From positions 23,910-87,909 of the forward strand of contig JAHDDK010000005.1 of NCBI GenBank assembly GCA_020629375.1: a stretch of 64,000 nt of DNA, read 5' to 3'. A program made the position numbers and the translations under genes. Below are positions 26,957 through 55,826 of this stretch, piece by piece. Below the pieces are notes generated by a model. The model did no database searches. It had not been told where the DNA came from and worked only from the letters and a program-made list of their open reading frames with translations. Position 1 is the first letter of the stretch. Every line of letters starts with the position of its first letter. Origin of the DNA: Acidimicrobiales bacterium. GTDB taxonomy: Bacteria > Actinomycetota > Acidimicrobiia > Acidimicrobiales > SHLQ01.

Positions 26957-26959
26957 CGA

Positions 26960-32410: not shown

Positions 32411-32434
32411 ATGTTGAGCTTGGGATCTGGACAG

Positions 32435-32450
32435 AGGTACATGTGGACCT
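32435..32450. promoter_or_regulatory. 16-bp palindromic operator, 24 nt upstream of cpaB ATG
   Basis: AGGTAC-atgt-GGACCT. Confidence 0.75.
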
Positions 32451-32535
32451 CATCCATGCAGAGAAGGACGCCGCTTCGGTGCCGTAGAGGTACAGAACGC
32501 ACGGAACCGCGGTGACGCTCTGCATGCGCGATCAG

Positions 32536-32578
32536 CGCAAGAGACGTCCGCACTATGCGCGTGCAGACGTCTCTTGCG
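32536..32578 (-). terminator. Intrinsic terminator-like hairpin downstream of giant gene A
   Basis: CGCAAGAGACGTC-T-GCAC/GTGC-G-GACGTCTCTTGCG on minus strand: 18-bp stem with one U-G pair, 7-nt loop; no U-tract. Confidence 0.65.
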
Positions 32579-32647
32579 ACTCACGACCGAGGATCATTGC
32601 AACGGTCGATGCATCTCATCAGCACGAATTCCGACGTGCCCTCGCCA

Positions 32648-35600
32648 TCACTTCGGGAGCGTGTTGACGATCGAGTACGTGAGTTGTGAGTCACTACCGA
32701 GCGTTTCCCACCCAACCTCGCTCAGCTGGGTGGATGCGTCGATGACGTAGTCAGTCAGCCCGCCGAGCAGATCTGACATCTGGCTCACCTGCACGTAGTC
32801 GCGATACGACGTGTTCAGCTGTGCCTCGTAGCGATCCAACGATCCGAAGATCTGGCCGAGCGAACTGTCTCGGGGCACATCGTCGATCGAGGAGTACCCC
32901 CCGAACCCTTCGGCCTCCCATTGGTTGAGCAATTCGGTCCGCAGGGCATCCACGTAGACCGTACCGAGCTGATCACCGTCGATTGTGGTGGCCATGTTGA
33001 GCGCTTGGTAGAAGTCGCCCTGCTGGCCGAGGGTGTACAACTGATCGACGCTGTTCTGGACAGCAGCGTCGATGTCGGGCGAGAACGCCTGGCCGGTGAC
33101 TGATCCGAGCGCTGCGTCGATGAGCGGTGCGGTGTACTTCAAGTCGGGGATGTCGGCGACTTCGCCGGTCAACACCGGGGCAGTTGGTGGCGTGAACGTC
33201 GGCGGCTGCGGCTGCAGGGCCGGGTCGGCGAAGATCACCCGTCCATCGACTACCACGGCCTGGGCCCCAGCATCGATCGACGGAACGTACTTGACGCCAC
33301 CGTTGTACGAAACCGGCCGAAGGTATGTCAGGTCTTTCAACTTGTCTTGTTGGCCCATGTCAACGAGCGTCTGGGCAATCAGGTCACCGTCGGCGATCAA
33401 CGTGTTGATCTCGGCGAGGTTGCCGACCGACTGCTGATCGACCGCACTGGTGAGCCGCTGACGACTCCCAGCAACGGTCGCATCGAAGTTCGCCCGATCT
33501 TGAGACTGCTGATAGTTGAAGATCCGAACAGCCTGCTCGTGTTGCGCGGTGGCCTGGCTCAGCTGAACGTTGTAGTTCTCGAGCGCATTTTTCTGGTCGA
33601 GGTTGTTCTGCAGTACCGGCTGATGCTCGACGACCGCCTGGTTCCATGTTTCGTTCCACTGATTCTCGTGGTACTGCCGGAACAGACTCGCTGCGTAGTT
33701 CGCCGCCTCGAGCTCGAGCTGCGACACCTGGTTCTGCTTTGCCTCAGGGTTCAGGTTGGCTTCGATCAACGCTCCCTGGAAGCCGGCCGTGCCCTCGGCA
33801 GACCGAGCGTTCAGTTGGAGCGACGACATTGCAAGGTTGTTTGCGATCGTCGACATCGTGAGCCACTGCTGAGTCACCCCGGTCTGGCCGAGCTGACGAA
33901 TCGTCCCGCCGAGACCGCCGATGATTGCTGCTGCTCCGCTCTTGTCGGCGCTGGCGATCGCACTACCGCCTCCTTCGATCACCGCACCGGCTTGGGCAAT
34001 CGCGGTGTAGAAGAGAGAAGTCGCCTGCTCGATCTCATTCGGCGACGCCGAGTCATCGCTGAACGTCCGGACAGCCTGAAGCATGTCTCCGATCGGCTTC
34101 GTCGCTGGGCGACTCTGAAGCTGGTTGATCTCCGCAAGCTCGAAATCGAGGATTCCATCGATGTCGGACCCGAACGCTGGACGCTGAAGCTCGCCTTCCG
34201 ACGTCCGGAGATCAACCATCGTGTTGAGTCCTGCAACGTCGTGATTGAGGCCGAACGGGAGCACGGAGACGTTGTCATGACCATTCGTGCCGTTCGGGAG
34301 CGCCCCGACGTCGAACTGATCGAGAAATACGCCGGCAGTCTCTCGGAGGACCTCGTCGAGCTGATGCTGATCGATTTCCTTGATCTTCGTCCTATCTCCG
34401 AACGTCCCGTACACGTGAGATAGTGCGTTCTCAATCACGGCATCGAATGTCGTCGCCTTGGCCTTCTGGATCTCGTTCTCCAACTCGATGATTCGTTTGT
34501 CGAGCGCCGACAGACCGGATGCGGTGAAGGCGTGATCCACACCAAGATTCAGTGAGGGGATCACGAAGTTCGGTCGTGAGTCGATCAGCTGCTCGAGCTC
34601 GGCTTCGAGGGCGTCGAGGTCGTAGTCGGTGTCGGAAGGCGAGAGCGTGTCCCGCCGTGTGTTGTTCGAGCCGACGGGTCCTGGGAGCCGCGTGTCGATA
34701 TCCAGCTGATTCAGCGAGTACACCGTCGATGTGTACTGATAGAGCGTCCCCCCGTTCGCGTTTTTGATGTCATTTAGAGTCCCACTGGCCGCGCCATCTG
34801 CGAGCTTCTCGTAGCGCGTGAAGTGAAGGTAGTAATTCCACTCCCCGTCAACTTCGTGCGGAATCACCGCAACCTTCGTGATCTCGTTCTGAAGTTCGAA
34901 GTCGGTGTGGCCGACGATCTGGTTCCCATAGACGTTTGGATCCACCCAACCGCCTATGCCGTTGCCGCTTTCAATGAGCGCGTTTCTGGACGCGATGTCG
35001 ATTGGCATCACGATGCCCTCGGCGTGATACGTCGCCGGAAATCCGTAGAGATGGTGATCGGCGGCCGTGTTCCCGAGAAGATCACCGGATTGCAGCTCGA
35101 CGACCGTCTCGACAACGAGCGGTGACGCCATACCAAACGATCCTCCGGGCGAGAACATCAGTTGGCCGGGAGGCGGTAGGCCGATCGACACGTAGTCGCT
35201 CCCGTCGGGCTGCTTGAGTGTGTCCAACGTGAAAAGACCGAGTGGTCCTCCGTCGGAGATTGTCGTTGCGGTAAGGACTTCTTGACCGTCGAGCATGAAA
35301 GTGCCCAGGCCAACTGGGTGGAACTGAGCCTCCGTGCCGAACTCCCAGGCCTCGCCGGACTCCAGGCTGATGTCTTCGGTCTCACCGTTCCAGTACTCGG
35401 CGGTGAACTCCATCGTGTCGGGGCCGAGATTGCGGAGGATCGCACCCTCGAGGCCCTGGCCCGTCAGTGCGGTCAGCGGTGTCTCGAGATCGCTGACCCC
35501 AACGAGTGTCGTCTGGCCGGGAACGTCGAAGCTCGTGAGCATGCCCTGGAAGCCATCCGCCGAGATCGTGGTGGTCCGGGCATAAAAGTCGAACAGCTCC

Positions 35601-38600
35601 GTTGCCGATGGTTGACGACCGAGGTCGGCAGCAAGTTCGGCGGGCGTCGATGGCGGCGGTGGCGGCGGGTCGTTGTCGTCGTCATCGTCTCCCGGATTGC
35701 CTGAGCCTCCGCTACCGATGCTGTCGGGGTCTGGCCGTAGGAGGTCGAGGGGGTCCCACCACACTCCTGGTCGACTGTCGGTGGGTCGCGTTGCGTCGAG
35801 CACGTAGTTGTTGTCTTCGTCCAAGACGACGTGCGGGATCAAGGTGTCGGCAGGCCCATCGGCGTCCCGCGGCCATTCGGGGTCGCCTTGCTCGTGGTTG
35901 TAGAGCATGTCCTCGATGTTCGAGCTGTACACCTGGAACGACAGGGCCGGGTTGCCTTCGTTGAGCTCGGGATTCGGGTCACGGAACCCGAGCTTGTCGC
36001 TCGACAGCCAGATCTTCACATGGTTGTAGGGCGAACCGTTCGCATTCAGGCGGATCTCGCCTCGCGGGATGAACTCTCCGTCTTCGTTGAATTCGCCGTA
36101 CTCGATGAGATCGCCGACTCGTTCGCTCGACCCAGGATCGACCTGAAGCGTGATCTCGTACTCGTAGCGGAGTCCCTGAGCACCCGCGCTCAGGATCGAC
36201 GGGATGGAACCCCGATCGCCAGGTGGCAAATCGTCATCGGAGTCCGTGTCGGGGAGATACTCGCCAACGAACTCGCCGAACTCGAATCCGTCGAGACCAG
36301 CTGGAATATGCGCTTCGCCGAGTCGACCTTGCGCTTTGTGGGGCATCGGGGTGAGGACGTTCAAGATGACCCGGTCACTCCCCTCCCCGCCGTCGATCAG
36401 CGTGCCGTCAGGGGCGACGAAGATCATGTAGTCGAGTGGATCCAGGTCGGCTTCGTTGACCAAGTAGTTGAACCTCTCCGGATCGAGGTTGGTCGCATTT
36501 CCCCAGCTCAGTGCGCCCATCTCGTCGACGTAGTCGTCGGTGAACCGCTCGACGTCGATCACATAAGTCACGTCGACCGAGGCGATGTCATCGCCATCTC
36601 CGAGCTCGACCGTTATCGATCGCTCATCACCGAACCGAGGATTGAGGATCCGAGGGGTCACCGTGATGTCGTTGTCTTGCGCTTCCCGTCCATCGGCGGA
36701 TTGAACCTCGAAGTAGTCGCCGCCATCGCCGGTGCGGACGATGATGTCGTCCTCGTCAAGGTCATGACGAACCTCGTAGACGACCATGTCTCGGCCGTCT
36801 CCGGTCTCCCAGATGTCGGGGTTGTCGCTGCCGTAGTCGTCGGTGTCGAAGATCGTGCCATCGCCGTTTCGGGCGATGCTGCGGTCAGCGTCGCCATCAG
36901 CGCCGAGGACGACCTCGACGTCGTAGTCACCGTCGGGGCGGAGGCGGGGGCCAGATGGGTCGATGGGACCGATCCCGTCGGGAACATCGATCCGGAGAAT
37001 CTGTTCGTCGTAGCCGTCAGCGAAGCCCGCCGTGTCGTGGCCGTCCCCGATCTCGACAATCCCGTCCGAGCCGAGCGTGCTCCGGTCGTCGCCGGCGCCG
37101 CCGTCCAAGAAGACGTCTTCGCCAGAACCTCGAAGTCGATCGTCGCCGTCGTTTCCGTAGAGCGCAACGCTCCCGTCCCCCGCGACATCGAGGTCGTCCT
37201 CGCCTGCTCCACCGTCGAAGACGACTTCTCGCACATCGTCGAACTCGACGTCGTCGTCGCCGCCGCCGAGCTGTCCGCCGGCTGCGTGTTCGCTGTCTCG
37301 GCCATCGATGTTGAGGTTTTCGTCGTTGGGTGCGTAGAGCACGAAGCCGTCGTCGGTGTCGACGTTGATGTTGTTGACTCCGTCCTCGATCGTGACCACA
37401 CCGTCGATGGTGAGCGTGTGGGTGTGGTCGGCCTTCGGGTCGTCGATGACCCGGAAGATGACGTCGTTGTCGAGCGAGCCCAGGAAGTCGATCTCGGCCT
37501 CGGTGAGGCGGCCAGGGAACCAACCGTCGCGGGTGGGATGGAGTGTGTCGCCGAAGATGATGACGATCGTGTCGTTCGGGAACAACTCCGGGAGGTAGTT
37601 CTCGAAGCGGTTGTGCCCGGACCAGTCGCCGTCTCGGAATCCGTAGTCCGTTGCGATGAGGATCTCGAAGACTCGGCCGCCATCGATCGTGGCCGTATCG
37701 CTGTTCGGTAGCTCGTCATCACCGGTGAGCGGGGGCAGGTCGGGGTCGTAGTCGAGGTCGTCTTCGTCTCGCGGTCGCGGAATGACGGTGACGCCGGGCA
37801 GCGTGAACGGCGGAAGTCCGTTGGTTCCTGGCTGCGTTGTGCCGGGCACGACAAAGCCTGCCGGGCACGGCAGGAGCGGCCCAACCCAGTTGTCCGGCGG
37901 GCCGTAGTAGTCCCCGTTCGGCAGCACGCACCATTCGCTTGCGGGGACGCCAGTCGACTCGCCAACGCCACAGTTCAATTCGACGCAGACAAGCGCGTTG
38001 ACAACAGGTGTCACCACGTTGCCAACAGCCGGTAGGGCGAAGGAGTCGGGAGCCGGCGCCACGTTCAACGGAACGAAGCCCGAAGTGTTGGCATCAACCG
38101 GCGTCGCGTCAGAGGCCTGCGCCGTCGGAGAAATCCGGAGCACCGAATGCGAACGCGAGCCAAATTCGAGCTCAGACCCATCGGCGCCGGAGACAAGCAG
38201 CGTTGCCGTCACCGAGGAAACGTCGATATCGGCACTCAGCACGACAGTCGGCGGAGCGAGGAGGCTGCCAGTGACCGAGTCGATGACTCCGCCTGCGCCG
38301 TCGGTCAAGCGCAACACCAGCTGCGCATTGCGGCCAACAACATCAAGCGCTGGAACACCGGTCACCGTGAACGTGGCTTCGCCCACAATCCCCCCGTCGC
38401 CACAGGAGCACTCGACCGCGAGACCCGAGGCCTGGGCAGCCGCAAGCACTTCGTCGTCAGTCAGCGGATCTGCGCACTCGCCGAAAAGCACCGATCCGTC
38501 TGGCTGACCACGCATACATCCCGTTGCAGCCCATTCGGCTGGCACTTGCGTACCCCCGGGGAAGTCCGAACACAGCTCGGCGATCTCCCACTGACCGGCC

Positions 38601-38836
38601 GATCCGGCGAGCGGCGTGTACCCCACGCACTCGGCCGTCGCCGGGATCGGTAGCGGACCGACCGGTTCGGCTCCAGCATCGGTGACTTCTTCCGGAACCG
38701 CCTCCTCTTCGACTGCACCGACCGGTCCAGCCGCGGCGACCACGAGCACAGCAACCGTGATCACGGCGACAACTGGCCGATGGTGTAGGGACGTAGACCA
38801 TCGTGACGAAACAGGAAAACGCTGAAGGAGTGCCAT
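32648..38836 (-). CDS. Giant secreted protein A (2062 aa) with RTX-like Ca-binding repeats and helical C-terminus
   Basis: Signal peptide ending ...AAAGPVGA; GGGDDDV, DGGAGEDDL, YGNDGDDRL, DGGAGDDRS; paralog of the next two genes. Confidence 0.85.
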   Translation of the reverse strand: MALLQRFPVSSRWSTSLHHRPVVAVITVAVLVVAAAGPVGAVEEEAVPEEVTDAGAEPVGPLPIPATAECVGYTPLAGSAGQWEIAELCSDFPGGTQVPAEWAATGCMRGQPDGSVLFGECADPLTDDEVLAAAQASGLAVECSCGDGGIVGEATFTVTGVPALDVVGRNAQLVLRLTDGAGGVIDSVTGSLLAPPTVVLSADIDVSSVTATLLVSGADGSELEFGSRSHSVLRISPTAQASDATPVDANTSGFVPLNVAPAPDSFALPAVGNVVTPVVNALVCVELNCGVGESTGVPASEWCVLPNGDYYGPPDNWVGPLLPCPAGFVVPGTTQPGTNGLPPFTLPGVTVIPRPRDEDDLDYDPDLPPLTGDDELPNSDTATIDGGRVFEILIATDYGFRDGDWSGHNRFENYLPELFPNDTIVIIFGDTLHPTRDGWFPGRLTEAEIDFLGSLDNDVIFRVIDDPKADHTHTLTIDGVVTIEDGVNNINVDTDDGFVLYAPNDENLNIDGRDSEHAAGGQLGGGDDDVEFDDVREVVFDGGAGEDDLDVAGDGSVALYGNDGDDRLRGSGEDVFLDGGAGDDRSTLGSDGIVEIGDGHDTAGFADGYDEQILRIDVPDGIGPIDPSGPRLRPDGDYDVEVVLGADGDADRSIARNGDGTIFDTDDYGSDNPDIWETGDGRDMVVYEVRHDLDEDDIIVRTGDGGDYFEVQSADGREAQDNDITVTPRILNPRFGDERSITVELGDGDDIASVDVTYVIDVERFTDDYVDEMGALSWGNATNLDPERFNYLVNEADLDPLDYMIFVAPDGTLIDGGEGSDRVILNVLTPMPHKAQGRLGEAHIPAGLDGFEFGEFVGEYLPDTDSDDDLPPGDRGSIPSILSAGAQGLRYEYEITLQVDPGSSERVGDLIEYGEFNEDGEFIPRGEIRLNANGSPYNHVKIWLSSDKLGFRDPNPELNEGNPALSFQVYSSNIEDMLYNHEQGDPEWPRDADGPADTLIPHVVLDEDNNYVLDATRPTDSRPGVWWDPLDLLRPDPDSIGSGGSGNPGDDDDDNDPPPPPPSTPAELAADLGRQPSATELFDFYARTTTISADGFQGMLTSFDVPGQTTLVGVSDLETPLTALTGQGLEGAILRNLGPDTMEFTAEYWNGETEDISLESGEAWEFGTEAQFHPVGLGTFMLDGQEVLTATTISDGGPLGLFTLDTLKQPDGSDYVSIGLPPPGQLMFSPGGSFGMASPLVVETVVELQSGDLLGNTAADHHLYGFPATYHAEGIVMPIDIASRNALIESGNGIGGWVDPNVYGNQIVGHTDFELQNEITKVAVIPHEVDGEWNYYLHFTRYEKLADGAASGTLNDIKNANGGTLYQYTSTVYSLNQLDIDTRLPGPVGSNNTRRDTLSPSDTDYDLDALEAELEQLIDSRPNFVIPSLNLGVDHAFTASGLSALDKRIIELENEIQKAKATTFDAVIENALSHVYGTFGDRTKIKEIDQHQLDEVLRETAGVFLDQFDVGALPNGTNGHDNVSVLPFGLNHDVAGLNTMVDLRTSEGELQRPAFGSDIDGILDFELAEINQLQSRPATKPIGDMLQAVRTFSDDSASPNEIEQATSLFYTAIAQAGAVIEGGGSAIASADKSGAAAIIGGLGGTIRQLGQTGVTQQWLTMSTIANNLAMSSLQLNARSAEGTAGFQGALIEANLNPEAKQNQVSQLELEAANYAASLFRQYHENQWNETWNQAVVEHQPVLQNNLDQKNALENYNVQLSQATAQHEQAVRIFNYQQSQDRANFDATVAGSRQRLTSAVDQQSVGNLAEINTLIADGDLIAQTLVDMGQQDKLKDLTYLRPVSYNGGVKYVPSIDAGAQAVVVDGRVIFADPALQPQPPTFTPPTAPVLTGEVADIPDLKYTAPLIDAALGSVTGQAFSPDIDAAVQNSVDQLYTLGQQGDFYQALNMATTIDGDQLGTVYVDALRTELLNQWEAEGFGGYSSIDDVPRDSSLGQIFGSLDRYEAQLNTSYRDYVQVSQMSDLLGGLTDYVIDASTQLSEVGWETLGSDSQLTYSIVNTLPK

Positions 38837-38860
38837 GAGTCGATCGTCTCATCGGCCTAA

Positions 38861-38876
38861 CGGTTCATACGTACCG
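38861..38876. promoter_or_regulatory. 16-bp palindromic operator, 24 nt upstream of giant gene A ATG
   Basis: CGGTTC-atac-GTACCG, flanked by GGCCTAA/TTAGGCC. Confidence 0.72.
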
Positions 38877-39007
38877 ATTTAGGCCAGCTTGACGTAGACG
38901 TAGGCAGTCACGACGTTGTACAACCCGGGAGCCGCGCTTCAGGCGGACACGTGATCTGGTTCACGACAGCGGTTCCATGGACGACCCCGCATCCGACGAC
39001 TGGGTCC

Positions 39008-42000: not shown

Positions 42001-45000
42001 CGCCGATGCCGTGTCCGGCCAAGACGCCAAGATCTGTCTCGAGATCCGTGATCGAAATCCCTCGGGCTCCTTCACCGGTGTCGTAGGTCACGAGCTCGCC
42101 AGCAAAGCCGCCGTCGGTCGAACGAACGGTGGTCGTACGAGCATAGAAATCGAACAGCTCGGTGTTGGTCGGCGGGCGGCCAAGCGCAGCCTCGAGCTCC
42201 TCTGGGGTCGATGGCGGCCCATCCGACGGATCTCCCGACGGGTCCGGCAGGCCAGCCCCCGTACCACCCGAGAAGTTGCCGCCACCTCGGAGAGCGTGGT
42301 CGATCGGATCCCACCACACACCGGGGTCATATCCCCGTGCGATCGTGGCGTCGAGCATGTGATTGTTGGATGCATCGAGGACAACACTCGGGATGAGATC
42401 GGTTGCGGGACCATTCGGCGTGTCCGGCCATCCCAGATCACCGGGAGACAACGTCGCCTCCGTTGAGGCGAATGGCCCTCCGAATACTTGGAATCCGAGT
42501 GCACCGCCAGGACCGTTTGCGTCGGGGTTGGGGTCCCGGAATGCGAGATTGGGTGTGGAGAGAAAGATCTCTTCATCTGTCGGCGCATCGAGACCGAGTC
42601 GAATCGACCCGCGTCGTACAAACGCTCCATCGATGATCTCGCCGTAGTCGATGAGATCGCCCGCACGGTGCCGACTTCCGACATGTGCCTTGATGCTGAT
42701 GTTGAACTCGAAGCGCGTCCCTGCCGGATGATCGTCAAGTTGACCGAGCCGACCGCCCGAGCCGGGCTCGTTCGGCGGCGGAGCATCGTCGCTCTCGATG
42801 TCGAGGTAGGTGCCGACGAACTCCACGTGCTCGTGGCCGGTCACGCCTCCGATGACGTGATCCATCCCCAAACGGCCCTCGACACTGCGCGGCATCGGCA
42901 TCAACACGTTCAAGATCACCCGGTCATTGCCCGCTCCGAGGTCAATGGTGACCCCTTCCGGTCCGATGAAGGTCATGTAGTTGAGCGGGTCGAGATCTGC
43001 GCGGTTGGCGAAGTACGTGAAGTTCTCTGCGTTGAGGTCTCGCCCGACCAGCCGGATTCCTCCGGGTCCCACTTCACGCACGTAGTCTGCAATGAATCGG
43101 TCCATGTCAATGATGTACGTGACATCGACTTCGACGACGTCATCCCCTTCACCTGCGTCGATGTGTGTCTCGGTCGGGGAAGACGGATTGATCGTCTGCT
43201 GGTCAACCGTCTCCCCCTCAGCCTGGACCTCGCGGCCGTTGATCGAAATCACGGAAATGTGGTCGTTCCCACCCTCGGCTTCGATGACGATGTCAGGCAC
43301 CTCGCTCTCTTCGGACCGTTGCGCCGAGTACCCATGGTCGACCTCATACCGAATCGAGTCAGCACCGTCACCGGTCTGGATGATGTCGAAGTTCGCAAGA
43401 TCTTCTTGGTTCACGACATCCCCAGCTCCCGTCGCGATCCGGAACACCTGATCTTTGAGACCGTCGTCGTCGAGTCCGATGTCGACGCCGACGACATAGA
43501 TCCCGTTCGGGTCGTCGTTGCGTCGGAAGCCCGGAGTGCCTTCGGGTACACGGACGCGAATGATCTGATCATCGACGGTGACACGATCACCGTCTTCGTT
43601 CTCATATGTCCTCGATGCACCGATCTCGTCGAGACCGTCGCCGACGTACACGACGCCCGAGCCTTCTGCAGAGATGGAGTCGTTCCCCGCGCCACCGTCG
43701 ATGATGTACTCACCTGAGTCATCAGTGACCGCAACTCTTAGTTCGTCGTCACCCGCGCCGCCGTAGACCGCTGCGTTGTCGATGTCGACCAGACGAACAG
43801 AGTCCGACCCGTCGCCGCCGTCGATGGACACGGTGTCGGCGTTGTCTCCCCTGACGCTGTCGTCCTGACCACCAAGTCGAGCAATGAGCGTGTGTTCCGT
43901 ATCGGCAACATCGATGGACACACCGCCAGGATTCTGGTTCTCTCGCGCATCGAGAACAAAGTCGTCTTCAGTGCCCACGTCGAATCCGTCAACACCGCCG
44001 CGCAAATCGATAACTCCGCTGGCGCCGTCCATCGTGTCGTAGTCCCAGTCGTGCTCGGGTGACTGGTTCTCGAACACGACCTCGCCGTCAATCCGCCCGA
44101 AGAAGTCTGGGCTGTTCGGAGCGAACTCCGACCATGACTCGCGAAAGGCACCGCCGTCGTACCAACTGCGATAGGTGAACCCGAAAGTGACGGTGTCCGA
44201 GGCACGAACCACGGTCGGCCCGGTCGGCCCGAGAGGTGAGTCCTGGTCGACTCCCCAGCCGTCTTCTGGCGGATGGCCAACGACGCCACCGTCAATGTGG
44301 TTGCCACCCTCAATCGGTCGCACGTTGGTGTAGGGCAAACCATCCGGGCCAGTCAGGTCCGGAAGATCTGGGTCGAAGTCTTCATCCTCTTCGTCCCGAG
44401 GACGCACGACAGACGGCAGAACGAAAGGTGGGAGGGTCCCTGAGTTGCCGCCACCACTTGACGATGTCGAACAGGTGACTCCATCACTCGTCACGATCGC
44501 CGGAGTTCGCTCACCACCGTCTACGCAGAAGTACGTCGTGCCATTCGATCCATCCGTTGTCGTGATGATCAACACGTTTGGGTCGCTCGCCGACACGAAC
44601 GGGGTGCATGCGTCATCGATTGGCCCGGTGTAGCCGGCAGGCGCATCGGGACTGCCGTCGGCGTTTGTGCAGTACGAGTAGGGTGCGTTCGACACCGATT
44701 CGCACGTCGGTAGAGGACCCACGCCAAATCCGGGCGTCGTATGTCCACCGGAGTCGATGCACGCCTGAGGCGTCGTCGGCGTGTTCCAGGTGAACGCCTG
44801 TGGCGAGCCGTTCGCGCCCACGCGGGCAAGAGGTGCGACCGCCGTCGGGAGCGCAGCATCGACTCCGACCGACGCCGAGGCGACGGGCGTTTCGATCTCT
44901 GCCAAACCGTTCACCGAAAGCGTGAGCACATCGACGGTCGTCGACGCCGGGAAGGTTGGGCCGTCGACCGCAATCTCGTCCACGACGTCATCGCATGTTC

Positions 45001-45658
45001 CGACGAGCGATTCGAAGGTCGCCTGTTGCTCGACAGTCAGCGGCGAGTCACCGTCCTCGTTCAGCGCAGCCTCGTACGCTGCGCACGCAGCTGGCGCTGG
45101 CGTGGTCTGCGTCAAGGTCGAGCTCCCAAAGGTCGCGACGGCAGAGACTTCGGTGGCGCCACCCTCGCCGAAGATGATCTCGACACGCTCTCCGAAGGAC
45201 CGCTCGGTTCCGCCTCCGTCAGCGAAGTAGGCGCCTGCCGGCAACTGCCACACGACGGAATCGACGGTTGCCGATCCGGCAATCGCAACACCGCTGACTT
45301 CGTCGTCGATGGCGATGGTGCCAGAACCGTCGAGCCAGAACGACACCGCAGAGCCGACCAATACCCCTTCACCGCTGGAGTCAGAGTTGAGCGAGAACTG
45401 CGCTGCGCCAAACATGGCCGCTTCGCCGTCCTCAAGGGTCTCCGTGCTCGCCACACCGGGCGATTCGAAGTCGTCTGCGCTGTCGAGCGCCAACAGCTCG
45501 ACGAGTTCGGCAATGTCATCGTCGGTCACGTCGACGTCGCCCTCCGTCTCCTGCGCAATGGCGACCGAAGAGTTCAACCCGAAGAGGACGATGAGCAATG
45601 ACGCCATCGCACATGAGGCGGCCATCGGTCGGATGAGGGGCGAGTACCTGCTATTCAT
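39008..45658 (-). CDS. Giant secreted protein B (2216 aa) with RTX-like Ca-binding repeats and helical C-terminus
   Basis: Signal peptide ending ...SSVAIA-Q; DGGDGSDSV, YGGAGDDEL, DGGAGNDSI, AGEGDDVV, LGAGNDRV. Confidence 0.85.
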   Translation of the reverse strand: MNSRYSPLIRPMAASCAMASLLIVLFGLNSSVAIAQETEGDVDVTDDDIAELVELLALDSADDFESPGVASTETLEDGEAAMFGAAQFSLNSDSSGEGVLVGSAVSFWLDGSGTIAIDDEVSGVAIAGSATVDSVVWQLPAGAYFADGGGTERSFGERVEIIFGEGGATEVSAVATFGSSTLTQTTPAPAACAAYEAALNEDGDSPLTVEQQATFESLVGTCDDVVDEIAVDGPTFPASTTVDVLTLSVNGLAEIETPVASASVGVDAALPTAVAPLARVGANGSPQAFTWNTPTTPQACIDSGGHTTPGFGVGPLPTCESVSNAPYSYCTNADGSPDAPAGYTGPIDDACTPFVSASDPNVLIITTTDGSNGTTYFCVDGGERTPAIVTSDGVTCSTSSSGGGNSGTLPPFVLPSVVRPRDEEDEDFDPDLPDLTGPDGLPYTNVRPIEGGNHIDGGVVGHPPEDGWGVDQDSPLGPTGPTVVRASDTVTFGFTYRSWYDGGAFRESWSEFAPNSPDFFGRIDGEVVFENQSPEHDWDYDTMDGASGVIDLRGGVDGFDVGTEDDFVLDARENQNPGGVSIDVADTEHTLIARLGGQDDSVRGDNADTVSIDGGDGSDSVRLVDIDNAAVYGGAGDDELRVAVTDDSGEYIIDGGAGNDSISAEGSGVVYVGDGLDEIGASRTYENEDGDRVTVDDQIIRVRVPEGTPGFRRNDDPNGIYVVGVDIGLDDDGLKDQVFRIATGAGDVVNQEDLANFDIIQTGDGADSIRYEVDHGYSAQRSEESEVPDIVIEAEGGNDHISVISINGREVQAEGETVDQQTINPSSPTETHIDAGEGDDVVEVDVTYIIDMDRFIADYVREVGPGGIRLVGRDLNAENFTYFANRADLDPLNYMTFIGPEGVTIDLGAGNDRVILNVLMPMPRSVEGRLGMDHVIGGVTGHEHVEFVGTYLDIESDDAPPPNEPGSGGRLGQLDDHPAGTRFEFNISIKAHVGSRHRAGDLIDYGEIIDGAFVRRGSIRLGLDAPTDEEIFLSTPNLAFRDPNPDANGPGGALGFQVFGGPFASTEATLSPGDLGWPDTPNGPATDLIPSVVLDASNNHMLDATIARGYDPGVWWDPIDHALRGGGNFSGGTGAGLPDPSGDPSDGPPSTPEELEAALGRPPTNTELFDFYARTTTVRSTDGGFAGELVTYDTGEGARGISITDLETDLGVLAGHGIGGALLRNTSPDAVRFTATFWNGEEREVTVLPGQGWQFGPGHQYVPVELGVTQRHGDGMLVATSISDLSPIHLYSNPNYSDEEFGDTYYGNRTGMVRLPDEGQVTFTPPGGILGIEETSLVVETTSNLFIDDLRSQDIHDSTETAHHLFGFPAVRHVEAVLLPIGPGSFNSLVNAGRDPFAPYDYDEISAAAVPHADYNPLPRESVARLFTRRDAEGRMIHEIEIARFDRLEDDDAAYQQSQLRTAGGDLYRYTKTTYSLNEFHHDYIDLADPTGETLNREIWDYHALGSDLTELELRQRRLQLEAEIDEITASMESLEGPFGQPGGRLDRSDWLRLRRERNDLMAEYLRLEKPFYDELVTGVVAGIHGLDSYEESELVDAFGANLDERGGRIVTDLTQNGLQSLLYGATTRFQRYGAGLMPSGSVGVDGVNALPFSWPATMSNNAGRGDMISLAEGADTSAPGWDSDARAIFNRPRWEIEEMRESNDLITQLRGELAYNNRRMQDNSLPQTERLAARSAFWTVSGQLFEAMGAVGALGQVDPGVSRGGQIAKNLFDATQRMSKVSELGNLRQWVGLTAEANRIAAQNQTIARNAEANSASFRAAIVAANTNAHAKKLEITALERELTDWVGEMYERGHRSEHAQLTNQILADNAQLSNVREQREADIAAYQAQVARIDETYGDTLSQWESRRDLARTIVETSRSDTSSAGSMQFRLARALEDEAIMNDLIRRGNAIAGAVEHRMNTEADPAVARAIGLRLEDHSVLTPITNPFTGEEVLIPNPTIAAVAALPDGATPDAQTGEYSIYSVQFHDDMLGAPRPVRPTVAFPDFSIEAALAPEIAYVESQISTRLNAIDSAIDSPAVDAAVSRTVDQMHQYVADSDWDGLASLEAQLDGEPLGTRFASQIEAELRAQATADGYADTEWFGFVLETLDRVESDLNTAFRDYAQLHQLSAAYGDLEAYMFATNDAFLNDAWNEMIGANGAASNFRLVDTVPKN

Positions 45659-45683
45659 GACGCAGGCCCCATCACGTCCGTAG

Positions 45684-45745
45684 CGGTACGTTCGGACCGA
45701 AATGACAGGTATCTAGGTGCCGACGCAATAGGTACATGTACGCAT
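45684..45745. promoter_or_regulatory. Operator array (three sites, 23-bp period); proximal site 25 nt upstream of giant gene B ATG
   Basis: CGGTAC-gttc-GGACCG (45684), AGGTAT-ctag-GTGCCG (45707), AGGTAC-atgt-acgcat half-site (45730). Confidence 0.72.
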
Positions 45746-45903
45746 GTCGGCCTTCGGGCGATCGATCAGCCCCCCTGTCTCGGGGATGTTCCCGAACTCG
45801 ATGATGCTGTCCGAGACGAATCTGTCCGTCCGAGGTGAACGGCCAGGCGACTGGCCGATCGAGATGGATGCTTGCTCAGGTGGGCCGACGGAAACGTGAC
45901 TCG

Positions 45904-48900
45904 CTACGAGCTCGGCGGTCTCGCAGCGTCGGGCGAGTCCGGAATGAACCTCAGACCCTCATCCCAGACGAAGTCTGCCTGTCCAATCCGGATTCGGAAC
46001 TCGTCTTCTGCGGAATAGGTTTCCGTATAGAGGTTGGGATGCCCCCAGCCGTACGCGACATCGAAGTTGCCGTGTAAGAGAATGTTGGCAGCGAAGGCTG
46101 ATAGTCCGCCGGCAGTCAGAAGCGAAAGGTCGGGGGCAGGGCCGTTGGCGAAGTCTCCGAGAATCACCGGTCCTGCGAGTGCGGATCCGACGGTACCCAC
46201 ACCATGCAGGGCGAGACCCGTGCCAATTCGCCGGGCAATCGGGTTCGAAACGATGTTTGTGTTGAATCCAGAGATTCCGCCGAGATACGGGTTGTCCTCG
46301 AGTTCTTCTTGAGTGTGGTTGACGTCGTTCGCTGGGCCGTTGAGCGAGAACGCTCCTGCGTAGTAGCCACCCCTGTGCAGAAAGGGCGAGGCGAAGTTGA
46401 CTGCCGTGACCAGCTTGGCCATCGCAGTCACCTGCCCATTCCCCGTGTTGAGGATGACGGAGAGTTCGGTGCCCGTCTGCACCGGACCAATCGCCGGAAA
46501 GCTGAACCGCGCAGATGACCGCAACGGGGAGTCCTGGTTCACGCTGGCGACGATGAGCGGCGGCTTTCCAGAGGGCAGCAGTCGACGGAACGGGTCGGTG
46601 GCGTTCTTGTCGAGGGGCAACGCGACCGTGATGCTGACACCCTGATACGCACCAGTGATCGCGAGCACGTCGGGGTGGGTGATGTCGACCAGCGCTGTTT
46701 CGAACTGTCGCTCAACATTGCTCACGAGCTCATCTCGGTTCGACCAGGTAAGGTCCATGACCGTGTCGACGGTCTCGTCGAGATCATCGCCGATCCAGTC
46801 CCTCACGGGGCTGTCGAACATCGCCGTCGCTACATGAAGTTCATTGAGCATGTTGTCCAACGGTGGGCGGTGTTCGACTTGACCAACAACCTGGTTTCGG
46901 GTCGGCAGGCTCCCCTGGATCGCAAGCTGGTCAACTCCGGGACCGGGCGGGTTCTCACGAACGAACTCGATGTTTCCTCGATGGGCGGCCTCGTGTTGCC
47001 GCGCCGCGAAGAGATCCATGTTCTCAGGATCTCCGAGCAGCGAGATCCCCGCTCCGATGTCAAGTCGATCGATGGAGTCAATTTCTTCGGTCGTGAACCA
47101 CGACGAACCTCCTACTGCCTGCTGCAAAAGGCCTTCGGCGTCCGTCCGGCCGTATGCACGCGTCCGGGCAGCGTTCTGCAAATCTGGGTCGTCGAGCAAA
47201 GAGATGTCCGCAACGAAGCTCCGGAAGTCATCAAAGTCGCTCTGCTCACGCCACAGGACGTCGACCGGGTCGAATATCTCGCCGAGATCTCCCGTCCACG
47301 ATCCGATATCGGTTGTGACATGCAGCGGCCGAGCGTCGAGAACGTCACCTGGCTCGTAGTCGTCGGGGAGGACGTCGGTGATCACGTACTCGAAGTTCGT
47401 GCCGTTGAGTTCGGCACGGAGGAGTTTCGTGCCACCGAAACCGTCAACTGCCGTCGTCAGAGCCTTGAAGCCTCCGCTTTCGTCCAGGGCAACAGAAACC
47501 TTCTGATCCTTGTGCGGCGCGAAGGTGAACGCTCCCGAGCCGTAGTCCTGTGGAAGCCCGGTCTCGGGCGTCTGCCACTCAATAACCCGCGATCCGCCCT
47601 CGATTGAGACGACGTTCTCCGTCCGATCTCCAAGATCGATCGGCCCGACCACGCGGACATCCGCATCGGGGGACATCAACCGTGGCGCAAAGTCGGTCCC
47701 TGGCAGATCGGCGAGAATCATGGTGTCGCCCGCAAGCAGTGTCTCACCTCCGACGACCGCGGCGTGGCGTTCTGCCGGGTAGGCCATCTCCCAACCTTCA
47801 CCGGGCTGAAGCGTGACGACTTCCTTCGTGTCGTTCCAGTGGGTCACCCGGAAAGTCAGCGGCTCGTCATGTTGATTTCGCAGCGTTGCGCCCGTCAGTC
47901 CTCGGTCGGCGAGATTCTCGAAGTTTCGTGGGGTGAGGAGCAGTGGATGATTGGCCGATTCACGCCACGTCGGCTCATGGGCGGCTCTCTGTTCGTTGCT
48001 CTCGAGATACAGCGCCTCGCCGTCGAACAGCACGCGATCTCGTGTATCGCCCCACGCCTCGATGCCCGTGTGGCGAACAAGCCAGTCGAAGCGATCGCTC
48101 GGCGTGATATCCGCGCCTCCGCTGACGTCCTCGAGGCGCTGGTTGAACTCGGTCCAAGACGTCCCGCCTGAGCCCGACCCAGTACCTCGACTTGCGCCAT
48201 TCCATAGCGGTAGGTCGGTGATCGACGGGGACCCTCCACCGGTTGGCGGCGAAGACGACGCCGGTGGAGTTGGTTCGTTCATGCCAGGCCCAAGATCGGG
48301 TGCGCTGCCAAGCCGTACCTCCCCAGGATCGAGACCCCACGTCGAGGTGACCTCGTGGGTCACCCCAGTTTGTGGGTCGACAGTCGTCATATCGGTGAAG
48401 AACAACTCGAACGCAATGTTCTGATCTGACGGATTGCGAAAGGCGATTCGATCCGGGTTCTCGACAACGATCGACGTTCGAGTATCCGCCCACTGAAAGA
48501 TCCGCCGACGGCCACGAAAGATGAACTCGCCATCGTCGTTCAGCTCGCCAACATCGACGAACGCTTCGTTTCGGGCCGTTGGGTCATTGGCGTACTCGAC
48601 TGCAGTGGGGCCTGCGGCCTTGACGCGGAATCGGTACGTCCAGCCGTCGTTGAGGTCCGGCGCATTCGAGTTGTAGCCCGTGTAGTGAGCACCTGAACCA
48701 CCGTGATCCTCACCACTGACGCCGGGAGACGTCGGCGACGCTGGAGGGTCGTCGGGTACGGGAATCCATTCGGCGACAATCTCCAGGTTCTCGAACCCGA
48801 GCACCGTTCCGACATCCACAGTGTCTTCGAGATCGCCCACCCCCAGAACCGTGTTCTCCGGTAGTGGGTTGAGGACGTTGAGTACGATCGTGTCGCCATC

Positions 48901-51285
48901 ACCGGCTCCACCATCGATGGCTCCGGTGCTGGGCAACACCCACTTGAGGTACTCCGCTGGCTGAAGCTCGGCTTCAGCCCCCCAGTACGCGAATTCGTAC
49001 ACGTCGAACTCATCGGGTAGTTGATGAGACGTGATGTCTCGGACATCTCGGACGAACCGGTCCCACTCGACCTCGTACACCGCATCGACAGTGACACGGT
49101 CGTTGTCCAACCCGGCTTGCAGTTCGAACGGGCGCTCTTCGACCAGGTCATCTCGCTCGACCCAGTCCCCCGACTGGTCGACTTGTCGACCACGGCTGGA
49201 GATGAACGCTATTGCATCAGCCCCTAGGCCCGAGTCGATCTCCATACCCCCATTGGTCTCCGTGCCAAAGCGCGCATCCACGACCACTGAATCATCCGCG
49301 ACACCGCCAAGAATCAGCTCAGTGATGTCGTCTGACCCGTTCGGGTTGAGGAGCCGGTCGCCATCGGACGTGATGATCGTGGACCATCCCTCGGTGTCTT
49401 CGTCGAAGCCGACAGAGACGTCGATTGGCATGCCACTCTCGACATGAACTTCGATGACCTCGCCATCGGCATCGACGGTGTCTTCTCCCGCGCCGATGAT
49501 CGCCCGGTGGACGCCATCATTGTTCGCGCCGTGTCCTTGGAACCGAACCGTGTCATCTCCCCGGCCACCAATGAATGTCCCGAAGTCAAGTTCGGCGGTA
49601 TCGTCGCCATCTCCGCCGAGCACGACGGCATTTCGGTCCTCGGTAAACTCCGCCCGGCCCCAGTACTGGCCGTGGCCACCGCGCGCGGTGATGGAGTCGT
49701 TGCCGTCGCCTGCGGCGATTGTTGATGACGTGAGATGTCCAAGCGACGCTGTGTCGTCACCGCCTCCGAGATCGACGATCCCGTGGCTCACATTGCCTTG
49801 CCAGTCGAGATCGACGTTCGTGTCGTCGAACCGCAGGACTCCGTCGTCGAGATAGTCGTAGGTACTGAGGATGACGGCGGTGCCTGACACGTCCAGCCAC
49901 AGCGAGTCAGGATCCAAGGCGCCAAAGTCGACCGGGGTCTCTGAGACAAATCGAATGCGGCCTGCGAATGTGTAGAGGAAGGCCTGTTCCTCAACTGAGA
50001 GCGCGTCGCCCAGGGTCGTTCCGTTGTCCAGACGGAGGTCGAGCGTCAGCGTGTCGGTCGGCCAGCTCGCACCGAGATGGAGGAATCGGTTCTCCCGGTG
50101 TTCGGCTTCACGGTCGATGATGACTTCGAAGTCCACACCACTCGTCGGCGGGACAACTCGAGTCGTCAGGACACCATCGCCATTGAGGAACGTGTCACCG
50201 CCCCCTCCGTTTGATCCCTCGCCGCTGTCTCCATCGCCGCCACCACCGTTGCCGCTGTCACCGTCGTCGCCGTCACCGTCGCCAGATCCATCATCGATGA
50301 TGACGACGAGCTCGTCATCATCATCCTCGTTGAGCACAACGGTCGGCAGGTCGGGAACCGGAACCGTCGAACCACTTGGCGAACCCCCGGACCCACCTGG
50401 TGTTCCACTGACGAGCGGAAATGCAGCCGCACCGGGGATGATCAGGCCCTCGGGGGCAGCCGGTCCCATGACGCCTGCGGGCAACACCTCTCCACCGCGA
50501 GGAATAACGGTCGAGGGAACGAACACACCGGTCACGGGTCGTTGTGCTGGCGTCTGTGACTCGGGCTGGCCTGTGGGCGCCACTGCCACGACGGTGAAAC
50601 TCAAACGTCCGACCTCGTAGCCGTCTGCTCGATCGGAGCCAGCGAGTAAGACCGCAGTGACGCTCTGACCCGCCAACGCGTCAACGATCAGGGCACCATT
50701 TCCAACACGGGTGCCAAGCTCCGTATCGTCGCTCGTCCGGACCTCCAACCAAACGTCGACTCCCGGACCGGTTACGTCGGGACCAGGGACGCCGCTGACG
50801 ACGAGCTCGATCTGACCAGCAAGCACGGTCCCGCTGCACCCGCAGGACGTGGCAACACCTGCGTCGAGCAACGCCGTGACCAGGTCTGCGCCGCCAAGCG
50901 GGACAACATCACACCCGCCAGCAACCAACACGCCTTCATCCATCCAGACACATTCGGCACCGACCGGTGGTGTGGCGATCGTGACGCCGGCAGGCGGTAC
51001 CAGCTCACATGTCGCAGGATCTTGGGGAATGGAGACCGAGTCAGCACCAACCATGACGCACGGGCTGTCTGCGATGGCCGTGGACACTGCCCTCGGCGAG
51101 GGACCAACGGCTGTTCGGATCTCCAACGCGATGTCGTCTTCGTGATCAGCGGAAGGATCGGCCTCCACGAGCGCACCTGCGGCGGAGACACCCGCGATCA
51201 AACCAGCGGCGCACAACGAAATGCCAATCCCGCCAAAGCGTCGCACGACTGTCCACTGCGTCGACCGAACCTGCATGTAGCCCAT
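45904..51285 (-). CDS. Giant secreted protein C (1793 aa) with RTX-like Ca-binding repeats and distinct C-terminus
   Basis: Signal peptide ending ...GVSAAGA; LGGGDDTA, AGDGNDSI, GGDGDDTA, GGRGDDTV, DGGAGDGDTIVLNVL. Confidence 0.85.
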   Translation of the reverse strand: MGYMQVRSTQWTVVRRFGGIGISLCAAGLIAGVSAAGALVEADPSADHEDDIALEIRTAVGPSPRAVSTAIADSPCVMVGADSVSIPQDPATCELVPPAGVTIATPPVGAECVWMDEGVLVAGGCDVVPLGGADLVTALLDAGVATSCGCSGTVLAGQIELVVSGVPGPDVTGPGVDVWLEVRTSDDTELGTRVGNGALIVDALAGQSVTAVLLAGSDRADGYEVGRLSFTVVAVAPTGQPESQTPAQRPVTGVFVPSTVIPRGGEVLPAGVMGPAAPEGLIIPGAAAFPLVSGTPGGSGGSPSGSTVPVPDLPTVVLNEDDDDELVVIIDDGSGDGDGDDGDSGNGGGGDGDSGEGSNGGGGDTFLNGDGVLTTRVVPPTSGVDFEVIIDREAEHRENRFLHLGASWPTDTLTLDLRLDNGTTLGDALSVEEQAFLYTFAGRIRFVSETPVDFGALDPDSLWLDVSGTAVILSTYDYLDDGVLRFDDTNVDLDWQGNVSHGIVDLGGGDDTASLGHLTSSTIAAGDGNDSITARGGHGQYWGRAEFTEDRNAVVLGGDGDDTAELDFGTFIGGRGDDTVRFQGHGANNDGVHRAIIGAGEDTVDADGEVIEVHVESGMPIDVSVGFDEDTEGWSTIITSDGDRLLNPNGSDDITELILGGVADDSVVVDARFGTETNGGMEIDSGLGADAIAFISSRGRQVDQSGDWVERDDLVEERPFELQAGLDNDRVTVDAVYEVEWDRFVRDVRDITSHQLPDEFDVYEFAYWGAEAELQPAEYLKWVLPSTGAIDGGAGDGDTIVLNVLNPLPENTVLGVGDLEDTVDVGTVLGFENLEIVAEWIPVPDDPPASPTSPGVSGEDHGGSGAHYTGYNSNAPDLNDGWTYRFRVKAAGPTAVEYANDPTARNEAFVDVGELNDDGEFIFRGRRRIFQWADTRTSIVVENPDRIAFRNPSDQNIAFELFFTDMTTVDPQTGVTHEVTSTWGLDPGEVRLGSAPDLGPGMNEPTPPASSSPPTGGGSPSITDLPLWNGASRGTGSGSGGTSWTEFNQRLEDVSGGADITPSDRFDWLVRHTGIEAWGDTRDRVLFDGEALYLESNEQRAAHEPTWRESANHPLLLTPRNFENLADRGLTGATLRNQHDEPLTFRVTHWNDTKEVVTLQPGEGWEMAYPAERHAAVVGGETLLAGDTMILADLPGTDFAPRLMSPDADVRVVGPIDLGDRTENVVSIEGGSRVIEWQTPETGLPQDYGSGAFTFAPHKDQKVSVALDESGGFKALTTAVDGFGGTKLLRAELNGTNFEYVITDVLPDDYEPGDVLDARPLHVTTDIGSWTGDLGEIFDPVDVLWREQSDFDDFRSFVADISLLDDPDLQNAARTRAYGRTDAEGLLQQAVGGSSWFTTEEIDSIDRLDIGAGISLLGDPENMDLFAARQHEAAHRGNIEFVRENPPGPGVDQLAIQGSLPTRNQVVGQVEHRPPLDNMLNELHVATAMFDSPVRDWIGDDLDETVDTVMDLTWSNRDELVSNVERQFETALVDITHPDVLAITGAYQGVSITVALPLDKNATDPFRRLLPSGKPPLIVASVNQDSPLRSSARFSFPAIGPVQTGTELSVILNTGNGQVTAMAKLVTAVNFASPFLHRGGYYAGAFSLNGPANDVNHTQEELEDNPYLGGISGFNTNIVSNPIARRIGTGLALHGVGTVGSALAGPVILGDFANGPAPDLSLLTAGGLSAFAANILLHGNFDVAYGWGHPNLYTETYSAEDEFRIRIGQADFVWDEGLRFIPDSPDAARPPSS

Positions 51286-51309
51286 GTCACATCTTTAGGG
51301 CAGGCCGAA

Positions 51310-51325
51310 AGGTACGAATGTACCT
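51310..51325. promoter_or_regulatory. 16-bp palindromic operator, 24 nt upstream of giant gene C ATG
   Basis: AGGTAC-gaat-GTACCT (perfect arms). Confidence 0.78.
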
Positions 51326-51373
51326 AGTTAGGGCTCGGCGATGGCTTTGCCGAAAACCGGCACTCGCTGAAGG

Positions 51374-53685: not shown

Positions 53686-53719
53686 GGCAGTCCTCGGTTC
53701 GGGCGATCAGCGCGGGGTT

Positions 53720-54838: not shown

Positions 54839-54847
54839 GTCGGTCTC

Positions 54848-55753: not shown

Positions 55754-55772
55754 CTGTACCAGAGGCTACACT
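55746..55772. promoter_or_regulatory. Palindrome TGGTAC-atct-GTACCA plus TACACT -10 in divergent rpiR/gcvT-like region
   Basis: Perfect arms at 55746-55761; TANNNT hexamer at 55767-55772 on + strand. Confidence 0.6.
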
Positions 55773-55826
55773 CAATCGAACGCTCGTCCCATCACGGCGA
55801 GATCAACTCCTGCGAGAGGACACCCC

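Follow-up and report, generated by a model that had tools for sequence, protein, structure and literature searches.

Proteins of the RTX family carry tandem nonapeptide repeats (GGxGxDxUx) that fold into a Ca2+-binding parallel β-roll (PMC3034196). The same account, by Linhartova et al. (2010), lists RTX-motif proteins in six genomes of Actinobacteria that have no type I secretion systems. In Pseudomonas aeruginosa, PprB is described as directly activating the tad locus, the large BapA adhesin and the CupE fimbriae (PMC6821963). Here we describe three giant open reading frames (ORFs), P0001, P0002 and P0003, found in a 64,000-nucleotide stretch of an Acidimicrobiales genome (assembly GCA_020629375.1, contig JAHDDK010000005.1, positions 23,910 to 87,909 of the forward strand). 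This whole stretch is called the window below, and all coordinates are counted from its first letter. The three giants are a real family that is restricted, as far as searched, to one genome, and their genes stand directly upstream of a complete accessory Tad/Flp pilus operon, which is read from the same strand. Our preferred reading, to which we give a little less than an even chance, is that the giants are lineage-restricted, very large and very acidic exoproteins that would be exported by the Sec pathway, bind Ca2+, serve in adhesion or in a matrix, be co-regulated with the pilus and be carried by a genomic island.

Three giant genes in tandem

The giant ORFs lie in tandem on the minus strand, exactly where a preliminary description of the window had placed them. 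Their genes and parts are as follows.

45904..51285, minus strand: giant gene 3, P0003; 1793 residues, 189 kDa, pI 4.1; N-terminal signal-like segment, Cys-containing N-terminal region, shared core and a C-terminal region of ~600 residues without a significant match in P0001 and P0002
39008..45658, minus strand: giant gene 2, P0002; 2216 residues, 237 kDa; signal-like N-terminus ending AIA/QE, shared core and a long C-terminal region common to P0001
32648..38836, minus strand: giant gene 1, P0001; 2062 residues, 220 kDa
47686..49848, minus strand: shared core of P0003 (residues 480–1200)
41789..43936, minus strand: shared core of P0002 (residues 575–1290)
35237..37324, minus strand: shared core of P0001 (residues 505–1200), laid out as a predicted Ca-type β-roll/solenoid (~505–860), a β-rich segment (GE..DG.F..RG..R, FRDP), a G/P/D linker and a module with FDF..R.T and GA.LRN...WN...W
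32651..35236, minus strand: C-terminal 862 residues of P0001, which share 28% identity with the C-terminal end of P0002; a mixed region, then ~650 residues that a low-confidence model predicts to be long helices; no relative found

The genes are separated by 245 nt (P0003/P0002) and 171 nt (P0002/P0001), and 237 nt lie between P0001 and the first pilus gene; a simple promoter and terminator scan of these gaps found no promoter-like site or terminator. The calculated masses of 189–237 kDa bear out the ~200 kDa of the preliminary description. All three proteins have an acidic composition (343 D+E against 98 K+R in P0001) and a calculated pI of 4.05–4.16, and composition in 200-residue windows places all of their cysteines within the first 400 residues. 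Hydropathy identifies one strongly hydrophobic segment per giant, N-terminal and behind a basic stretch, and no second one. This segment looks like a Sec signal. The C-terminal ends (...NTLPK, ...DTVPKN and ...ARPPSS) have no hydrophobic tail.

Export by Sec rather than by a type I secretion system had been proposed for these proteins, and the single N-terminal signal-like segment of each giant and the Acidimicrobiales affinity of the relatives of the flanking genes both point that way. The Acidimicrobiales are monoderm, so a type I system is not expected. No ABC or membrane-fusion protein (MFP) genes, which usually lie close to those of RTX proteins, occur among the window ORFs scanned, in a search that covered the window only. 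A public catalogue starts P0001 24 codons (38765–38836) and P0002 11 codons (45626–45658) further in, which gives proteins of 2038 and 2205 residues. These starts would drop the basic stretch before the P0001 signal and shorten that of P0002. The longer ATG starts used here are favoured because the distance between them and a shared palindrome, described below, is fixed.

BLASTP aligns P0001 and P0002 from about residue 340 to the C-terminus (613 of 1873 positions identical, 33%, E = 0). P0003 shares the core only, plus a short N-terminal block with P0001, and has nothing significant in common with the others beyond about residue 1200. Its alignment with P0001 consists of a main block (161/631, 26%, E 8e-16), a second block (20/55, E 3e-7) and the N-terminal Cys-containing block (45/153, E 5e-10), and that with P0002 of a main block (155/628, 25%, E 1e-19) and a second block (26/68, E 1e-8). 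The short second block, which P0003 has in common with both others, holds the motif GAxLRN...WN...W. The core common to all three giants is ~700 residues long. Beyond the giants, nothing paralogous to their N-terminal, core or C-terminal regions was found in the genome itself.

The claim that the three paralogs carry a series of motifs in one order is borne out: of nine motifs written as regular expressions, seven occur exactly and in that order in every giant, and the other two each miss in one protein through a single conservative change (F for I/V in (I/V)xSxxGR of P0003, and V for L in the WN...L motif of P0002). None of 300 residue shuffles gave any motif in all three giants. The GGxGxD repeats that head the series are present in all three, but canonical turns are few, a loose pattern matching five, four and two times in P0001, P0002 and P0003, respectively. 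Matches of the GGxGxD type inside the repeat region number three, three and two, with one further P0001 match in the IDGGEGSD motif. Nucleotide identity between the P0001 and P0002 cores is 0.61, 0.63 and 0.39 at codon positions 1, 2 and 3, where composition alone leads one to expect 0.32, 0.25 and 0.33. The other giant pairs follow the same pattern, with positions 1 and 2 well above expectation and position 3 near saturation. Because the first two codon positions are conserved and the third is nearly saturated, the giants are old paralogs under protein-level selection and not chance ORFs.

Predicted fold of the shared core

An AlphaFold2 model of P0001 residues 505–1200, built from the three-sequence alignment, has a mean predicted local distance difference test (pLDDT) score of 53.4, and its usable stretches are residues 1–80 (pLDDT 60–77), 200–350 (52–83) and 560–660 (40–79) of the model. 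A Foldseek search of the PDB with this core model found nothing at E ≤ 0.001 (best 0.045). An exhaustive structural aligner places model residues 1–356 (P0001 505–860) on calcium-dependent β-solenoids. Region IV of MpAFP (PDB id: 3p4g) is matched with a Z of 13.6, a root-mean-square deviation of 4.5 and 22% identity over 228 aligned residues; the RTX domain of CyaA (7rah; Z 10.8, 19% identity), RsaA (5n8p; Z 9.8, 234 residues aligned, 7% identity) and an RTX-like domain (9cse; Z 9.5) are matched as well, and many unrelated right-handed β-helices come next, with Z of 8–10. A sequence profile of the roll region gives six marginal hits in the PDB at E ≤ 10, and all six are β-roll proteins (best, CyaA, E 0.013).

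The marginal profile hits and the fold matches to 3p4g and 7rah together support the calcium-type β-roll of the preliminary description, as a predicted fold, and the repeat region is, as modelled, a degenerate RTX-like roll. Apparently the solenoid continues, with a helical insertion, through the motifs (I/V/F)xSxxGR, VDxxY....RF and IDxGxGxD..LNVL to about P0001 residue 860. Its continuity is not secure, because model residues 91–193 fall below a pLDDT of 50. The region after the repeats had been described as a set of unrecognised domains. Much of it, up to about P0001 residue 860, appears to belong to the same predicted solenoid. Calcium binding and Ca2+-driven folding of the giants are what we infer from the modelled roll.

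The later core, with the motifs GE..DG.F..RG..R, FRDP, FDF..R.T and GA.LRN...W, is modelled as β-strands with pLDDT of 47–79, and Foldseek finds only weak β-sandwich matches for it (e.g. the VHL β-domain, probability 0.4–0.7). The β-sandwich stalk that had been proposed here is not upheld, since the strands are of low confidence in this model and the second AlphaFold model, of P0001 residues 885–2062, has a mean pLDDT of 32.9. In tentative outline, P0001 would be a β-protein to about residue 1200, mixed to about residue 1400 and made up mostly of long helices in the following ~650 residues. A Gly-rich hydrophobic stretch occurs in the C-termini of P0001 and P0002. About two thirds of each giant is without an assigned fold, and this part is not thereby shown to be a new fold.

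Search for relatives

None of the three giants matches Pfam at E ≤ 1 or PHROGs at E ≤ 0.1, and the search of NCBIfam (E ≤ 1) gives one far sub-threshold match, to RTX_toxin (E 0.095; 10.8 bits, the cut-off being 1000). The alignment of the post-repeat core (505 positions) was made into a HMMER profile, which is length-free and covers the core only, and this profile was run against 1,835,955,588 representative proteins. Its three hits at E ≤ 0.001 are the three giants themselves, and the earlier designation of a new family agrees with these outcomes. In six-frame translation, the core profile matches the giants' own genome three times, each time at the giant locus, and at E ≤ 0.001 it matches none of 25 same-genus genomes and none of 11 other genomes of the family; in this genus and family search, one core match in genome G432 (E 0.0047, 16 bits) was rejected as noise. 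The core is likewise absent from 400 other genomes sampled from the class. For an alignment of the P0001 and P0002 C-termini, 400 genomes drawn from the phylum gave no match at E ≤ 0.001, and a C-terminal match in genome G451 (E 0.0095, 13.6 bits) was also set aside as noise.

Among PDB sequences, P0002 has no match at E ≤ 1, P0003 has none at E ≤ 10, and the C-terminal profile finds only noise. A word-indexed homologue search gave two matches for the core among 7999 scored candidates and one for the C-terminus, all of them the window's own proteins. This search is insensitive (it missed P0003 and the P0002 C-terminus), and its candidates were 1134–3609 residues long. In the ESM Atlas, the best score for the core, 0.84, is a weak lead to HemolysinCabind clusters, and the giant C-terminus has no usable hit. 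The stretch with the giant genes is present only in three sequencing runs of one sample, labelled algae metagenome. In each run, all 19.1 kb of it stand in a single contig, with 0 differences; the runs are possibly the source of the assembly, which they reproduce and do not independently confirm.

A palindrome at a fixed distance from four start codons

A 16-bp palindrome, (A/C)GGTAC-N4-GTACC(T/G), stands before each giant gene and before the first gene of the pilus operon.

51310..51325, no strand assigned: palindrome before P0003, AGGTAC-N4-GTACCT, perfect; 24 nt upstream of the ATG
45684..45699, no strand assigned: palindrome before P0002, CGGTAC-N4-GGACCG (plus strand), three mismatches; 25 nt upstream of the ATG
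38861..38876, no strand assigned: palindrome before P0001, CGGTTC-N4-GTACCG (plus strand), three mismatches; 24 nt upstream of the ATG
32435..32450, no strand assigned: palindrome before the first pilus-operon gene, AGGTAC-N4-GGACCT, one mismatch; 24 nt upstream of the ATG

It is the sole conserved block when the four upstream regions are aligned. The window contains 21 matches with up to three mismatches against 7.75 ± 2.9 in shuffled sequence, and none of 100 shuffles reaches 21. Over the 4.4 Mb of the genome, the degenerate 14-mer shows no enrichment, with 33 strand matches where its reversed control has 44, so what is unusual is the clustering and the fixed spacing at this locus. Four transcription units with one palindrome at a fixed distance from the ATG may be read as one regulon, and on this sequence pattern we infer that the giants are co-regulated with the pilus.

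A fifth, near-perfect copy (TGGTAC-N4-GTACCA, 55746–55761) lies between the divergent genes of an RpiR-type regulator and a DAO/GCV_T oxidase and overlaps the called RpiR start. The idea may be raised that the RpiR protein of the island binds all five palindromes. The outermost pair of the palindrome covaries, being A-T at two sites and C-G at two sites, as a hairpin would have it, but the fifth pair is mismatched at three of the four sites, which would favour a protein-binding site.

The ~38-kb island

The giant genes and the pilus operon lie in an interval that has the following extent.

20470..58320, no strand assigned: island of ~38 kb, not in the closest same-genus genomes

DNA synteny with same-genus genomes ends at about 20470 (among the matches listed) and restarts at about 58325. 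In genome G414, both flanks abut on contig C12 (128007 and 127988), and in genome G408 (contig C1) they are 167 nt apart (331523 and 331691). The interval is absent from the five genomes checked, save for short or paralogous hits in its right-hand metabolic genes and one 53-nt match in P0003. Because the interval is absent and its flanks abut or lie close together in relatives, we take these ~38 kb to be an island. The window has no tRNA gene, and the ORFs scanned in it include no integrase.

The left part of the island encodes two regulators, including a helix-turn-helix (HTH) protein (20581–21684) and a LuxR-type protein (21700–24147). Its right part encodes MmgE/PrpD, a Rieske oxygenase, an aminotransferase, the RpiR regulator (54848–55753) and the DAO-GCV_T oxidase. 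The giants and the Tad genes share with the LuxR gene a GC content at third codon positions of 0.69–0.76, and that of the right-hand prpD, Rieske and aminotransferase genes is 0.80–0.90. The closest relatives of the genes that flank the island are 76–88% identical in amino-acid sequence and come from metagenome-assembled genomes labelled Acidimicrobiales or Acidimicrobiia. The left flank (13110–20470) is conserved and encodes a PGA_cap protein, a glycosyltransferase of family 2 and a GH26 hydrolase that bears an Excalibur calcium-binding domain. Since these are surface-polymer functions, the island would have inserted beside envelope and exopolysaccharide genes.

The Tad/Flp pilus operon

The pilus operon follows P0001 and contains the genes listed here in order of transcription.

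31595..32410, minus strand: membrane protein of 271 residues that has one transmembrane segment and weakly matches the SAF domain (E 0.11), in a CpaB/RcpC-like position
30273..31667, minus strand: protein of 464 residues in the TadZ/CpaE position; no Pfam match at E ≤ 1
28963..30282, minus strand: TadA/CpaF-type secretion ATPase (T2SSE, E 1.2e-22)
27216..29083, minus strand: two TadB/TadC-type platform genes (T2SSF, E 0.0049 and 2.4e-16)
26960..27130, minus strand: candidate Flp-type pilin of 56 residues, with G/FTTIEW ahead of a hydrophobic helix; its sole Pfam match, to DUF4244, is weak (E 0.027)
25591..26956, minus strand: three pseudopilin-like genes (weak TadE, E 0.58; weak TadF, E 0.28; TadE/G-like N-terminus PF13400, E 1.1e-5)
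25115..25579, minus strand: protein of 154 residues whose N-terminal domain is of the DivIVA type (E 3.2e-7); its gene comes after the pseudopilin genes and before that of the prepilin peptidase
24334..24873, minus strand: prepilin peptidase (Peptidase_A24, E 1e-10)
21700..24147, minus strand: regulator of 815 residues with a C-terminal LuxR/GerE HTH and a sub-cutoff AAA_16 match, at the end of the pilus operon

The class III motif (G/xxxxE[YF]) is present in the small genes at 25591–27130. The N-termini of the giants, inspected by eye, lack this prepilin signal, and the giants are therefore not pilins. In the TadZ/CpaE-position protein (30273–31667), a normal P-loop motif is absent by eye, and a pattern scan of 185,579 species genomes found no close relative of it. 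The DivIVA-domain gene is an unusual companion in a pilus locus.

The island TadA is not orthologous to the Tad ATPases of the genus, its best same-genus match being 33–34% identical in 24 of 24 genomes. The only closer TadA found, 43% identical, is encoded by genome G263, which belongs to another family of the order. Most same-genus genomes hold two to four TadA-type copies, and the giants' own genome holds three more TadA-type ATPase genes (contigs C29, C110 and C91), which are 32–33% identical to the island copy. With these three further genes in the genome, the Tad system of the island is a fourth, accessory one.

Proposed role and alternative explanations

In our preferred reading, each giant would be exported through Sec by its N-terminal signal sequence. 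Outside the cell, Ca2+ would fold the degenerate RTX-like β-roll, which is predicted to extend into a longer β-solenoid. The rigid acidic shaft so formed would bear the β-rich modules and the Cys-containing N-terminal region and, in P0001 and P0002, additionally the ~650-residue C-terminal region that is predicted to be helical. The giants would have arrived on the ~38-kb island together with the complete accessory Tad/Flp operon, and they would most likely be adhesion or matrix proteins that work alongside the pilus in surface colonisation. That the giants are extracellular and linked to the neighbouring pilus is what we consider most likely. If so, this would be a compact natural example of a monoderm that gained a pilus along with giant extracellular proteins and placed both under one control element, and of an RTX-like calcium β-roll used with Sec export instead of type I secretion. 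The family merits attention for having no relative among ~15 billion catalogued proteins and for its putative shared control element. The two thirds of each giant that have no detectable relative are good targets for finding new folds, and the palindrome is a testable handle on the regulator of the island and on the colonisation signal.

A bolder account, which we think unlikely, makes the island a self-contained mobile adhesion module of an undescribed kind. One palindromic operator would switch on the Tad pilus and three calcium-binding proteins of 190–237 kDa, most of whose ~6000 residues would lie in domains without relatives and which would work physically with the pilus (displayed, delivered or cementing). 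The 25–45% identity among the three paralogs would then imply a long history in an unsampled source lineage, outside the 15 billion catalogued proteins.

Several observations weigh against the preferred reading. The whole case depends on a single sample and a single metagenome-assembled genome, no RNA runs containing the giant stretch are listed, and the confidence of the structure models is low (mean pLDDT 53 and 33). Inspection of the C-termini, hydropathy and Pfam found no LPXTG sorting signal, SLH domain or wall-binding domain in the giants; as no cell-wall anchor is recognised and the C-terminal hydrophobic tail is missing, their retention at the surface is unexplained. Self-BLASTP of each giant gives no off-diagonal match at E ≤ 0.01 that would indicate internal tandem repeats. 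The degenerate palindrome pattern was derived from the same four sites whose spacing is reported, and the three giant-gene copies could, in part, share descent from one duplicated upstream region. The latter caveat is weakened because synonymous sites are near saturation, so that unselected flanks should be randomised, and because the fourth copy stands before a pilus gene, which is no paralog of theirs. Finally, the Tad locus of G263 has no giant ORF within ~10 kb upstream, and so this type of Tad pilus does not require such proteins.

This G263 locus also speaks for a somewhat unlikely explanation in which the giants are passengers of the island without a functional tie to the pilus: secreted Ca2+-binding proteins for, e.g., nutrient capture or a protective coat, with the palindrome being a generic promoter or leader of the donor. 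It also has in its favour that each giant gene is set 171–245 nt apart from its neighbour and has its own copy of the palindrome, and that the fifth copy, in the RpiR/oxidase divergent region, has a different spacing. Against this stand the identical ATG spacing at four consecutive co-oriented units, among them that of a non-paralogous gene, and the codon composition that the giants and the pilus genes have in common on the same island. An improbable explanation casts the giants as effectors of contact-dependent antagonism or killing that are used with a Tad-like machine, much as in the Kil system of Myxococcus, their variable C-termini being the active parts. Prey killing by M. xanthus is reported to need a Tad-like apparatus (PMC8460266). 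The conserved core and diverged C-terminus of the giants, the ~600 C-terminal residues of P0003 that have no significant match in the others and the predicted helical C-termini of P0001 and P0002 with their Gly-rich hydrophobic stretch would suit such a role, but the gaps of 171–245 nt are too small for immunity genes, the predator on which the analogy with Kil is based is a diderm, and no toxin-domain hit was found in Pfam, NCBIfam or the PDB, although distant or novel toxin folds could escape such searches. To our knowledge, the Kil effectors are not known.

It is highly improbable that the giants are structural envelope proteins forming a Ca2+-dependent S-layer or sheath-like lattice similar to that of Caulobacter RsaA. 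They are very acidic proteins with a Ca-type β-roll, RsaA is among the fold matches (Z 9.8), and the word depth of the organism in the runs is high (~155–170); however, RsaA is one of many solenoid matches with a similar Z, neither an SLH nor another wall-binding domain was found in Pfam, there are three divergent paralogs and not one dominant gene, and the absence from 25 of 25 same-genus genomes searched would be odd for such a layer. That the ORFs are not protein-coding, or are an artefact of assembly, is scarcely credible. The failure to find a homologue and the low language-model recognition scores (1879 and 1794) would fit that explanation, but open frames of 5.4–6.7 kb, codon-position conservation that reflects protein-level selection, a pattern of GC content at the three codon positions like that of neighbouring genes, and the recovery of all 19.1 kb without a difference from the three runs of the one sample contradict it.

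Comparison with known systems

The giants resemble RTX β-roll exoproteins (CyaA, PDB ids 7rah and 6sus; MpAFP/MpIBP region IV, 3p4g) in their GGxGxD-type turns at a 9-residue spacing, their acidity and their predicted parallel β-roll or solenoid (Z 13.6 and 10.8, 19–22% identity, profile E 0.013). Unlike these proteins, they have two to three canonical turns each in the repeat region, do not match the HemolysinCabind model of Pfam at E ≤ 1, carry a predicted N-terminal signal sequence where RTX proteins have an uncleaved C-terminal type I signal, belong to a monoderm host and contain ~1300 further residues unrelated to anything. Judged by their sequences, they fail the defining export feature of the RTX family and reach no curated RTX model threshold. 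Sec-type export of a roll protein would not be new in this phylum, because RTX-motif proteins of Actinobacteria without type I systems appear in the 2010 account (PMC3034196).

Like the giant adhesins of the RTX and Bap types (LapA, MpIBP, BapA), the giants are large and acidic, are predicted to bind calcium and, as far as the palindrome indicates, are apparently co-controlled with a Tad/Flp pilus. They differ in having no tandem Ig-like extender repeats (self-BLASTP at E ≤ 0.01; no Ig-like domain in Pfam), no type I secretion operon at their locus and no sequence homology to these adhesins, and in being three tandem paralogs with a pilus operon adjoining. Caulobacter RsaA (5n8p) shares the Ca-dependent β-solenoid as a fold match (Z 9.8), but this match is no better than those of many unrelated solenoids, and the genes of the giants are strain-specific. 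Polymorphic toxins differ from the giants, which have no hit to a toxin family and whose genes are followed by 171–245 nt that leave no room for an immunity ORF. The adjoining operon agrees with actinobacterial Tad/Flp loci in its ATPase, two platform proteins, Flp-like pilin, pseudopilins and prepilin peptidase. We know of no described Tad locus with such giant neighbours, and a narrow full-text search of the literature found no description of a link between a Tad pilus and a giant exoprotein.

The closest functional analogy in print would be the PprB regulon of P. aeruginosa as set out in PMC6821963, where a tad locus and a large adhesin likewise come under one activator. What is new at the present locus is the family itself, its non-repetitive giant architecture, its triplication, and the way in which it is tied, physically and apparently also in its regulation, to an accessory Tad operon on an island specific to the strain.

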